Positions 53,628-56,555 of a DNA stretch of 64,000 nucleotides are shown here, in pieces. A program made the translations under genes and the position numbers. Origin of the DNA: an uncultured Chloroflexia bacterium (GTDB taxonomy: Bacteria; Chloroflexota; Limnocylindria; Limnocylindrales; CSP1-4); NCBI GenBank assembly GCA_963734535.1, contig CAVTHS010000011.1, positions 128,001 through 192,000 of the forward strand, given 5' to 3'. Every line of letters begins with the position of its first letter. Position 1 is the stretch's first letter. The notes beneath the pieces are model-generated. The model worked only from the letters and a program-made list of their open reading frames with translations, did no database searches and was not told where the DNA came from.

Positions 53628-54453
53628 CGCGGTATCTCCACAGGTGATTCACGGGGCCGCGGCCCGCCCCGAGCGGCTCGGCGTGCTCGATCGCGCCCTG
53701 CAGGAAGACCTTTGCGGCCCGGGCCGCGTCGAGCGGCGTCGCTCCGCGGGCAAGGCCGGCCGCGATCGCCGCCGAGAACGTGCAGCCGGTCCCGTGCGTG
53801 TGGGGCGTGTCGATGCGCGGACTCGAGAGCACCTCGAACGTGGTCCCGTCGAACGCGATGTCCTCGGAGCGTTCGCCGCCGAGGTGGCCGCCCTTGACGA
53901 TGACCAGGCGCGATCCGAGCGCGTGGATCCGGCGGGCGGCCTCGCGCGCCGTCCGCGCGTCCACGACGTCGAGGCCGGCGAGCACGGAGGCCTCCGGGGC
54001 GTTCGGCGTGACCACTGCGGCGATCGGAAGGAGCATGTCACGCAGCGCCGCGATCGCGTCCTCGCGCAGGAGCCGGTCGCCGCCCTTCGCGATCATCACC
54101 GGATCGACGACGAGCCGCGTTATGCCGTGGGCGCCAAGGCAGCCGGCCACCGCCTCGACGATCGCCGCGCTGAAGAGCATCCCGGTCTTGACCGCGTCTG
54201 CGCCGATGTCGGAGAGCACGGCGTCGATCTGGGCCGCCACGACGTCCGCCGGGACCTCGTGGATCATCCGAACGCCTGTCGTGTTCTGGGCGGTGATCGC
54301 GGTGACCGCCGAGGCGCCATACACCCCGAGCGCTGCGAACGTCTTGAGATCGGCCTGGATCCCGGCTCCCCCGCCCGAATCGGACCCGGCGATCGTGAGC
54401 GCGCGCGGCCGCGGACGGCCGATCACACTGATCGCCTCATTGGTGGACGCCAC
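53620..54453 (-). CDS. thiD: HMP/HMP-P kinase
   Basis: [40 protein letters not shown]. Confidence 0.96.
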
Positions 54454-54523
54454 GGGATCCTGCGCCTCCTGACAATCGAGATGCCGTCCGTCGAGGAACG
54501 GGACGGCATCGAGTCAGGTGAGG

Positions 54524-54612
54524 CCTGCTTCCTTCGCTGGTACGAGCCAGATCAGGTTCGGCGGGTCTGTGGCTGGTGCCACACTCTCAGCGCTGTGCGC
54601 TCCCCGGAGGCG
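54524..54612 (-). ncRNA. TPP riboswitch aptamer
   Basis: Minus strand GGGGAGC...GCTGAGAG...ACCC...GAACCTGATCTGGCTCGTACCAGCGAAGGAA upstream of thiD; -10 TATACT at 54631-54636. Confidence 0.95.
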
Positions 54613-54743
54613 ATCTTCAGTTCGGTCGGCAGTATACGGGATGGCCGGATCGCGGCGGCGGGTGGCCCAGGGCGTGCAGAACGGCGCGAGGGCGTTCGCG
54701 ACGCGTCGGGGCTATCCTCCGGTGAGTGTCATCCTCCTCTGCG

Positions 54744-54883
54744 TCTCACGGTCTGGCTCGTATGCTCCCTGCCCACCCAGTGGGTGTGGCTTCCATGCGT
54801 TTTGCCGGCCGTGAGACTCGGTGGACCGGCCGGCGTGACTTGATAGGAGCGTGGCTTCGCCCCGACTCAGGTGTGTCCGCCGA
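54744..54883 (+). ncRNA. Bridge-RNA-like element with target-binding and donor-binding loops
   Basis: Stem 54744-54757/54804-54816 encloses guides TATGCTCC and CATGCGTT around hairpin CACCC/GGGTG; stem 54818-54826/54875-54883 encloses guides ATAGGAGCG and ACTCA. Confidence 0.8.
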
Positions 54884-54922
54884 CCGGCCCGGTGTCACCT
54901 CGGATGAGGAGGAGACGCAGAC

Positions 54923-55969
54923 ATGGTCGTCCTGGGCGCGGATCTGCACAAGCGGAGTCACACCGTCGTCGTGATCGATGCAACGGGTCGCCAGCTGGCC
55001 GAGAAGACGATCGCCGCGACGGACGCGGGCCACCTCGAGCTCCGCCGCTGGGCGGCGCGATGGCCCGAGCGGCGTGGGCCTCGAGGACTGCCGCCACCTG
55101 TCGCGCCGGCTCGATGCCGAACTCGTCCGGGCCGGTGAGTCGGTCGTCCGGGTCTCGCCCAAGCTGATGGCCGGCGCCCGCCGCTCCGGACGAGAGCCCG
55201 GCAAGAGCGATCCGATCGACGCCCTCGCGGTCGCCCGCGCCGTCCTGCGCGAGCCCAACCTGCCCGTCGCCTCGCTCGACGGCCCCGACCGCGAGGTGCG
55301 TCTCCTCGTCGACCATCGCGAGGATCTCGTCGGCGAGCGGACCCGCCACGAGCAGCGCCTGCGCTGGTTCCTCGTCGAGCTGGCCGTCGCCGAGCCCGCG
55401 CCCCGCTCACTCGGTCGGGCGGTCGTCCAGGCCGCGCTCACGGCGGCGCTCGCCGGTCGCACCGAGCCGGTGGCCCGCTTCGCCCGTGATCTGCTCGCCC
55501 GGATCGTCGAGCTGAGCGCCGCCATCCGCACCCTCGAGCACGAGATCGAGAGCCTGGTCCGAGTCGCGGCGCCGAGACTCCTGGCCTTGCCCGGCTGCGG
55601 CGCCCTGACAGCGGCCAAGATCATCGGCGAGACGGCCGGGATCAGCCGCTTCCGGTCCAAGGAGGCCTTCGCCCGGCACAACGGCACCGCGCCCAGTCCC
55701 GGTCTGGTCGGGCAACGTCGTCCGCCACCGCCTCAACCGGCGGCGGCAACCGCCAGCTCAACGTCGCCCTCCACCGGATCGCCATCACCCAGATCCGGCT
55801 CGCCGGTCCGGGCAAGGCGTATCTCGAACATCGACACGCCTCGGGTGACACCCGGACCGAAGCCATCCGCGCCCTTCGCCGACGGCTCAGCGACGAGGTC
55901 TTCCGCCGCCTGCGAGCCGATGAGGCTCTCCGGGCGACCGAGCGGGCCCCGCTCGCGACAGCCGCTTGA
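54923..55969 (+). CDS. IS110 transposase/recombinase (frameshifts near 55075, 55695 and 55740)
   Basis: GADLHK, LED, KSDPIDA (DEDD); LPGCG; TAP..VWSG (catalytic Ser); GNRQLNVALH; ALRRRLSD. Confidence 0.92.
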
Positions 55970-55983
55970 CATAGGAGCAACGC

Positions 55984-56472
55984 ATGTCGCAGATGCCAGC
56001 CGCCGGCGATCCGGCTCCCGCGATCGCCCTCCCCGACGAATCGGGCACGCTCCATCGCCTCGCCGACCGAGCCGGCGCCTGGACGGTTGTCTACTTCTAC
56101 CCGGAGGACGACACGCCGGGCTGCACGACCGAGGCCTGCGAGTTCCGCGACAGCTTCGCGAGCCTGCGCGCCGACGGCGCCGAGGTCTGGGGGATCAGCC
56201 CCGACGATGCCGGCAGCCACGCGAAGTTCCGGGCCAAGTTCGAGCTTCCGTTCACGCTCCTCTCCGACGAGGGCGCGGCGGTGACCAGCGCGTACGGCGC
56301 GTGGGCCGAGCGGACGAAGGACGGCCGGACGACGATGCGGACCATCAGGTCGACGTTCCTCGTCGGCCCCGACGGACGGATCGCGCACGCCTGGCCGGCC
56401 GTCAAGCCGGAGGGCCACGCCGCCGACGTCCGCGCGGTCCTGGCGGCCGCGAAGGCACGGGCGGGACGCTGA
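55984..56472 (+). CDS. bcp: Peroxiredoxin, BCP/PrxQ type
   Basis: YFYPEDDTPGCTTEACEFRD; GISPD; RSTFLV. Confidence 0.93.
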   Translation: MSQMPAAGDPAPAIALPDESGTLHRLADRAGAWTVVYFYPEDDTPGCTTEACEFRDSFASLRADGAEVWGISPDDAGSHAKFRAKFELPFTLLSDEGAAVTSAYGAWAERTKDGRTTMRTIRSTFLVGPDGRIAHAWPAVKPEGHAADVRAVLAAAKARAGR

Positions 56473-56555
56473 TCCCCGGTGAAGAAGACTCCAGCGTGCC
56501 CGCGGGCGACGACGTGCCGTCGCCGCGTCCCGTCCGCGGCCGCCTGCGCCGGGCG

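Follow-up and report, generated by a model that had tools for sequence, protein, structure and literature searches.

The DNA examined here is a 64,000-nucleotide stretch from an uncultured Chloroflexia bacterium (the window, to which all positions below refer). It carries a 1259-bp insertion sequence of the IS110 family just upstream of bcp, a gene that encodes a 162-aa AhpC/TSA peroxiredoxin according to its Pfam match. The element occupies positions 54723-55981 of the forward strand, on which all features described here lie unless otherwise stated, and its junctions are flush, with no duplication of the target. With a probability of roughly 85%, this is a now-inactive element that was guided by a bridge RNA, and the guides of its clade are set to both hallmarks of a leaderless gene start, the -10 hexamer and the start codon. 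The predicted homing of these elements to leaderless promoters, first proposed from the sequence of this one copy, is strongly supported by comparison of insertion sites, guides, and host genomes.

The boundaries of the element can be read from sequences that lack it. Contigs from two public metagenome runs, X4 (912 nt, with 136 nt on the shorter side) and X3, join position 54722 straight to 55982; four public runs were compared, all as assembled contigs, and any run found contained at most 24% of sampled words, with 5-6% in six RNA runs. The joint omits exactly 1259 nt, beginning with TG and ending with AC, and zero letters are common to both sides. Therefore the element spans 54723-55981, its insertion is flush, and the empty site reads TATCCT-CCGGGC-ATG, with a spacer of six nucleotides (N6). 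The original prediction had rebuilt this target as TATCCT-ccaacgc-ATG (N7), a version ruled out by the joint and by the conserved right end ...GCAAC. The AAC at 55979-55981 is element sequence, not host.

On the left of the insertion, the host contributes the -10-like hexamer TATCCT (54713-54718), which is the left target and stands 6 nt 5' of the ATG in empty alleles, followed by CCGG (54719-54722), the first four spacer nucleotides. On the right, the final two spacer nucleotides, GC, and bcp (ATG at 55984) fill 55982-56472. Empty bcp alleles are also found on contig C12 of the same bin (TATCCT-CCGACC-ATG) and in genome G002 (TATCCT-CCGGCC-ATG). The ends of the element, TGAGTGTCA and CTTGACATAGGAGCAAC, are placed by the domains, the copy comparison, and the joint. 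Relatives with several copies in a genome show 98.6-100% identity between those copies over the span bounded by TGAGTG and GGAGCAAC (or GGAGCATC, GGAGCTTC) and no relationship beyond it, the exception being one of three copies in genome G215, which is just 83.7% identical to the other two. The two nucleotides left of TGAGTG and the one or two nucleotides right of the right end vary within genomes. The right-end terminus (55966-55981) consists of TTGACA (55966-55971, with the TGA stop of the transposase inside it), AGGAG (55973-55977), and the terminal AAC, and it is conserved across all copies listed. Among the 25 longest of 67 inverted pairs, no terminal inverted repeat joins both termini. 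In run X3, a loose end at window position 54723 belongs to a further copy of the element whose left flank ends TAGACT-CTCA, that is, TAnnnT plus 4 nt.

The strongest evidence for targeting comes from a survey of insertion sites. Homologues of the element were gathered from 201 genomes of the same family, 36 of which had a match, and all copies were fetched; 80 loci were added from a named genome collection, and removal of duplicates by right flank left 72 insertion sites of the clade. One locus, L049 (genome G111, 42% identity), is excluded from every count. The named relatives belong to hosts recorded as 'Candidatus Limnocylindrales/Limnocylindria bacterium', 'uncultured Chloroflexia bacterium', or 'Chloroflexota bacterium', with a few copies in bins labelled Acidimicrobiia, Solirubrobacterales, Gaiellales, or Binatia; the clade is found mainly in Limnocylindria-type metagenome-assembled genomes (MAGs) of Chloroflexota. 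At 60 of the 72 sites, the right end is followed at 1-3 nt by an ATG (48) or GTG (12), which opens a frame of at least 98 codons at 58 of them. A left flank is available for 52 of these start-codon sites; at 49 of the 52, TAnnnT precedes the left end by 4-6 nt, giving rebuilt spacers of N5 (1), N6 (29), N7 (17), and N8 (2). Enrichment of this kind at homologous sites had been put forward as the test of homing to leaderless starts, and the test was passed. Only 0.024% of random positions in the window's genome (G000) have both TAnnnT 4-6 nt to the left and a start codon 1-3 nt to the right, which makes chance an implausible explanation.

The guides of the elements change together with their targets across lineages. 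When the 8-nt left guide is compared with the target 8-mer at 49 sites, there are no mismatches in 21, one in 24, two in three, and three in one, and the right guide with its adjoining handshake guide shows zero or one mismatch at 44 of 52 sites. These sites present 15 distinct hexamers, and the elements carry 19 distinct guide 8-mers, 17 of which are TAnnnT; positions 1, 2, and 6 stay T, A, and T, and the middle three drift. Elements that stand before GTG starts (L035, L039) carry a CAC guide in place of CAT. The earlier observation that the guides of the window copy spell a -10 hexamer and an anti-start codon is confirmed. With at most one mismatch allowed, the left guide matches 64 places in G000 that have a start codon 4-5 nt further on, many of them not TAnnnT; other candidate target sites therefore exist in this genome, in which the element is present as a single copy.

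The RNA that carries these guides was modelled from an alignment of 27 left ends that starts at TGAGTG and runs up to the transposase ATG, in which a two-loop structure was tested for covariation. Its three helices comprise 35 pairs, with 92.1% of cells paired and 11 pairs in which both sides vary. With a covariation score of 0.223, the structure exceeds shuffled alignments (0.125; none of 500 reaches 0.223) and alignments with slid partners (0.03-0.07). RNAalifold paired element nucleotides 1-5 with the right donor guide; this was taken as a by-product of a guide that complements its own end, and the outer stem of the donor loop was put in its place for the covariation test. The target-binding loop (54743-54817) has an outer stem that pairs 54743-54757 with 54804-54817 (helix 1; 98.1% paired, with six of 14 pairs changing on both sides) and an inner hairpin that pairs 54771-54778 with 54782-54790. 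The donor-binding loop (54823-54890) has an outer stem that pairs 54823-54835 with 54878-54890 (helix 3; 86.6% paired, with three pairs changing on both sides).

The left target guide UAUGCUCC (54761-54768) has the same sense as its target TATCCTCC and matches it at seven of eight positions, being a copy of the -10 hexamer plus two nucleotides. The right target guide CAUGC and the 3-nt handshake guide GUU (together 54794-54801) are complementary, respectively, to GC plus ATG (55982-55986) and to the terminal AAC. All of the motifs named in the original prediction are in place: TATCCT, AGGAG, and the bcp ATG at the positions given above, TATGCT at 54761-54766, and CAT at 54794-54796. In the donor loop, the left guide AUAGGAGC (54843-54850) equals the right end at 55972-55979, and the right guide ACUCA (54865-54869) is the complement of TGAGT at 54723-54727, so that each donor guide matches one terminus, ATAGGAGC on the right and TGAGT on the left. 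The handshake triplet is the exact complement of the last three nucleotides of the right end in 58 of 64 elements, and the two covary (GTT/AAC in 36, GAA/TTC in 11, GAT/ATC in seven, and GTC/GAC in one, with ATT/AAT and CTT/AAG also seen). The left guide does not reach the crossover: a gap of 2-3 nt remains, in target and donor alike. For a donor-loop handshake with the last bases of the left target, no consistent complementarity was found in the aligned elements.

A 10-nt inverted repeat, TCTGCGTCTC / GAGACGCAGA, stands at 54737-54746 and 54911-54920. It could pair the 5' part of a transcript from the host promoter with the ribosome-binding region of the transposase. Such pairing would compete with the target-loop stem, and the repeat may thus act as a translational switch.

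Under the proposed mechanism, the 8-nt left target guide copies TAnnnT plus two nucleotides, and the right target guide complements the last one or two spacer nucleotides plus ATG or GTG. Recombination at such a site places the element flush and duplicates nothing; the hexamer then lies 4-5 nt to its left and the start codon 1-2 nt to its right.

The genome of the host bears a mark of the presumed targets. Leaderless genes can be recognized by TANNNT about 12 nt before the start (PMC3160421; the papers cited here and below were available in part, and statements drawn from them apply to those parts). When occurrences of TAnnnT in G000 are sorted by the number k of nucleotides between the hexamer and an ATG or GTG at the head of a frame of 100 codons or more, the counts peak at k=6 (177) and k=7 (122) and lie at about 20-40 for other values of k. 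The k=6 peak is separately present for hexamers beginning with TAC (95), TAG (48), and TAT (33). Control hexamers TGnnnT and TAnnnS give no peak, and SAnnnT gives at most a slight excess at k=6. The spacers at the insertion sites follow the same N6/N7 distribution. The original prediction had assigned bcp the geometry of other apparently leaderless genes of the window; this is borne out by the genome-wide peak, with the correction that the bcp spacer is N6 and not N7. Empty bcp alleles show the TA-led leaderless arrangement (TATCCT-N6-ATG) with no purine-rich motif before the ATG. The eight oriented bcp loci other than that of the window, from a total of 20 loci, have TAnnnT-N6-start in five cases, TAnnnT-N10 in two, and GAGGAG-N6 in one. 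For two other target genes, orthologues in sister genomes have TAnnnT at N6-N8 in six of seven cases and at N3/N6 in the remaining one. On these grounds, bcp and the other target genes are presumably leaderless.

Several observations weigh against the reading favored here and must be set beside those that support it. Three of the 52 start-codon sites lack TAnnnT (CACCAT, TAGACC, and one palindrome-type site). Because copies in one genome have their guide in common and related genomes are not mutually independent, more weight falls on how many distinct guides keep to TAnnnT. For one target gene of genome G007, empty orthologues have N7-N8 and the filled site sums to N6; bases could have been lost on insertion, or the spacer could differ between species. 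In 25 of the 49 hexamers the first three letters are TAG, and 11 of the 25 close an open frame of 80 codons or more. Because TAG is also a stop codon, some of these sites may double as gene junctions.

The TAG hexamers invite a simpler explanation, in which the guides match arbitrary sequence as in any IS110 element and their likeness to promoters and starts is incidental, reflecting, for example, stop/start operon junctions (TAG...ATG). Sister lineages that target palindromes lend this idea some weight by demonstrating that guides can be set to anything. Nevertheless, it must be judged very improbable. The remaining 24 hexamers begin with TAC or TAT, which are never stop codons, and the T, A, and T of positions 1, 2, and 6 hold over all 19 guide variants. 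The spacers mirror the genome-wide distance from TAnnnT to start, hexamers with TAC and TAT included. Moreover, bcp has no co-oriented gene upstream, because the thiamine operon on that side is divergent.

The lineages with palindrome-matching guides number two and account for 12 of the 72 sites: five copies in genome G108 (L033, L064-L067) and seven sites of the G215 type (L041, L071, L072, L036, L042, L140, L159). Their targets resemble repetitive extragenic palindromic (REP) sequences and are of the types GGTCGCC|CGGCGACC and ACACGATGACC|GACGTCGTGT. Eight further unique sites, in Actinomycetota records with 51-60% protein identity, also represent other targets. These loci (L144-L166, e.g., L147, L148, L150, and L154) retain the right end CTTGACATAGGAGC. 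In one Actinomycetota group the elements immediately precede AAGGAG-N5-GTG, which places them 5' of a ribosome-binding site.

Another difficulty for targeted insertion as reconstructed here is that the core dinucleotide shared by both junctions in IS621, a bridge-RNA element of the same family, was not found at the junctions of this element. A 2-nt core of that type, duplicated on both sides, was considered and rejected. It implies spacers of N4-N5, which are at background level genome-wide (30 at k=4, 20 at k=5), and it is also contradicted by the empty alleles; the cores CG, TG, GG, and CC were tried by eye, and none fits both junctions.

The frameshifts in the transposase gene, which were overlooked in the original prediction, could in principle be assembly errors and not marks of decay. 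The pseudogene (54923-55969, with its own GAGGAGGAG at 54906-54914) retains the domains DEDD_Tnp_IS110 (PF01548, E 5.9e-12 and 2.6e-6 on two pieces) and Transposase_20 (PF02371, 2.3e-8), which agrees with the earlier assignment to IS110. Three frame changes are needed to read it: two nucleotides are deleted near 55072, and a surplus G stands at 55691 and another at 55739. An in-frame 9-nt insertion is also present relative to four relatives with 86-90% DNA identity; intact orthologues have 346 aa. Errors of assembly in a copy that is still active would be conceivable in a MAG of 14 contigs, particularly since single G's in G/C runs account for two of the three indels. This is rather unlikely, however, given that one indel is a deletion of two nucleotides, that the related copy L040 is broken too, and that the element is single-copy in a genome that offers other guide-matching sites. 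Related copies in runs X1 and X2 retain the two nucleotides deleted near 55072, and copies in runs X1, X3, and X4 lack the extra G at 55739. Judged from its reading frames, the window copy appears to be a fossil that is now inactive.

Insertion between a -10 hexamer and a start codon has predictable consequences for transcription. The host hexamer stays 4-5 nt from the left end, and transcription, starting 6-8 nt after the hexamer, would begin at element nucleotides 2-4. A transcript from the host -10 box would yield the bridge RNA, the transposase mRNA, and, via read-through, the displaced gene. At the right end, an operon-like junction would be formed from the transposase stop, AGGAG, 5-6 nt, and the displaced start codon; the stop is the TGA within TTGACA in the window copy and the TAG of TAGGAG in L087. 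This geometry points to capture of the host promoter by the element. No terminator-like site was found in 54450-56550, and read-through into bcp is therefore possible. A scan of the same interval for Escherichia coli-type promoters was empty, a result that is uninformative on promoters with TAnnnT only because the scan requires a -35 box plus a TATAAT-like box.

A second promoter might form in a circular intermediate. If the ends abut in a circle, an arrangement described in this family (PMC11187229), TTGACA would stand 17 nt before left-end nucleotides 8-13 (cAnnnT, with the A and the T invariant in 27 of 27 elements), and TTGACA-N17-cAnnnT is thus a candidate promoter of the junction. The public metagenome contigs examined contained no such circle junction. 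The candidate -10 box of this junction, CATCCT, resembles the target hexamer in the window copy, a likeness that other lineages lack. Left-end nucleotides 9-15 (ATCCTCC; window 54731-54738) repeat the host hexamer region at 54713-54720.

The role of AGGAG is harder to judge. The motif lies 5-6 nt before the start at every start-codon site, and the 3' end of the 16S rRNA reads CCUCCUU, which contains CCUCC. As had been claimed, AGGAG stands 6 nt before the bcp ATG, where it would act as a Shine-Dalgarno sequence for bcp and would allow the insertion to be tolerated; the proposal that it evolved for this purpose is weakened by the presence of the same right end at other targets. The right end with AGGAG, CTTGACATAGGAGC, is equally conserved at the 12 palindrome sites and at the eight Actinomycetota-type sites, and the donor guide AUAGGAGC corresponds to it. 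Given this match and the conservation at targets that are not starts, no Shine-Dalgarno role is needed to explain why AGGAG is conserved. The motif appears to predate start-codon targeting or to be independent of it. Probably, it is an older feature of the right end that was made useful at these sites and did not evolve for translation, and the donation of a Shine-Dalgarno sequence may be a by-product.

Taken further, these facts could mean that AGGAG is kept for the needs of the element only (donor recognition, the transposase stop, and the -35 box of the junction promoter), and that displaced genes are silenced or expressed by other means. Retention of the right end in relatives with other targets fits such an explanation, as does the identity of the donor guide with the right end in the 27 aligned elements, save four with single changes. 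It remains somewhat unlikely, because donor recognition and a Shine-Dalgarno role are not mutually exclusive, because the position of AGGAG relative to starts and the 16S rRNA sequence suit translation, and because the displaced genes show signs of use. Their frames are still open at 58 of 60 sites, all 10 sampled have Pfam matches, several of which align from the start of the profile, and bcp is intact, with a ratio of nonsynonymous to synonymous substitution (dN/dS) of 0.10 relative to the empty allele on C12, beside a decayed transposase with three frameshifts. Open frames, Pfam matches, and the bcp ratio fit a situation in which the displaced genes remain in use. Both promoter capture and the donation of a Shine-Dalgarno sequence are plausible proposals.

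From these components, a life history for the clade can be proposed with confidence slightly above even. The elements would be parasites of leaderless promoters, with selection holding the guides at the host -10 consensus plus the start codon. Each landing would place the bridge RNA and the transposase under a host promoter, and the right end would make the displaced gene the last cistron of a small operon. Drift of the guide within TAnnnT would shift the subset of promoters that is visited, and at least two switches to REP-like palindromes would have occurred.

The surroundings of the insertion add further context. A thiamine pyrophosphate (TPP) riboswitch of the divergent thiamine operon (thiD/thiM) lies on the reverse strand at 54511-54616 (RF00059, 65.2 bits), outside the element and 107 nt from the insertion. 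It is the sole match in an Rfam scan at E<=1, in which the bridge RNA matches no Rfam family. The bin holds contig C12, which is collinear with positions 170812-206492 of the window's contig (window ~42812-64000 and beyond) at 84-94% identity. Thus two related lineages were binned together, one with the element and the other without it. Elsewhere in G000, at about positions 1501-1571 of locus L002 (G000:C2:217752-217816), 65 nt of a related left end survive as a relic with 83% identity to window 54726-54790. This relic stands after TAGGCT-N7. At the point expected for the right target guide, it is joined to the ATG of a tsaE-like gene, and a 24-codon GTG frame crosses it, ending in an ATGA overlap with that gene.

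The features tested for bridge-RNA elements of the IS110 family (domains, two-loop RNA, guides, handshake, and no terminal inverted repeats) were all found here, save the core dinucleotide of IS621. As with IS621 and other such elements, a DEDD plus Tnp recombinase is accompanied by a left-end noncoding RNA with target- and donor-binding loops (PMC11208160, PMC11208158), encoded in a noncoding left end of about 200 nt. In IS621, the bridge RNA comes from the left end, its left guides have the sense of the top strand, and its right guides are complementary to the top strand (PMC11208160); the concept of the handshake guide is taken from PMC11208158. The element shares with IS621 these guide polarities, a handshake guide adjoining the right target guide, and a -35-like TTGACA in the right end. 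Unlike IS621, it targets a functional class of sites, a -10 hexamer plus a start codon, and not a REP sequence or other repeat. Other differences are that the left guide falls 2-3 nt short of the crossover, that no core dinucleotide is shared, and that the handshake guide has 3 nt. In addition, the integrated copy would be positioned for transcription of its RNA from a host promoter, whereas IS621 loci are described as expressing the RNA weakly (PMC13626964). Insertion with no duplication recalls ISEc21, the target of which is a conserved region inside IS3-family transposase genes and not a promoter, and for which the seekRNA work describes a circle whose abutted ends create a promoter (PMC11187229).

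In biological terms, the nearest precedent is IS900 of Mycobacterium avium subsp. paratuberculosis, the subject of a 1997 study by Doran and colleagues. IS900 recognizes a ribosome-binding site plus ATG, with its hed frame, on the strand opposite the transposase, aligned with the host signals. An IS900-type Shine-Dalgarno left half-site was not found here, where TAnnnT takes that place at 49 of 52 sites. Unlike IS900, the present element uses the -10 hexamer of a leaderless gene as its left half-site, has a transposase co-directional with the gene, and brings a ribosome-binding motif of its own. The likeness is that IS900 also belongs to the IS110 family and inserts in one orientation at translation-initiation signals just 5' of a start codon (PMC8141618). 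Searches for literature linking IS110 elements or bridge RNAs with leaderless genes, -10 boxes, Shine-Dalgarno sequences, start codons, or translation initiation found nothing relevant, with subscription journals and supplementary files falling outside the search. Such sites may be present, unremarked, among the targets tabulated in the supplement of PMC11208160.

If this account is true, the element would be the first described bridge-RNA element that naturally targets a class of regulatory sites instead of a repeat. It would also suggest how an integrated IS110 copy can secure enough transcription of its guide RNA to move again, and it would offer a case of natural guide evolution under functional constraint. 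For the engineering of such systems, the clade would provide a natural design in which the left guide tolerates an unpaired gap of 2-3 nt before the crossover, and in which the insertion may bring its own translation signal for the downstream gene. For an uncultured lineage of Chloroflexota that lacks transcript maps, the insertions would serve as a marker of leaderless promoters that can be read from sequence only.

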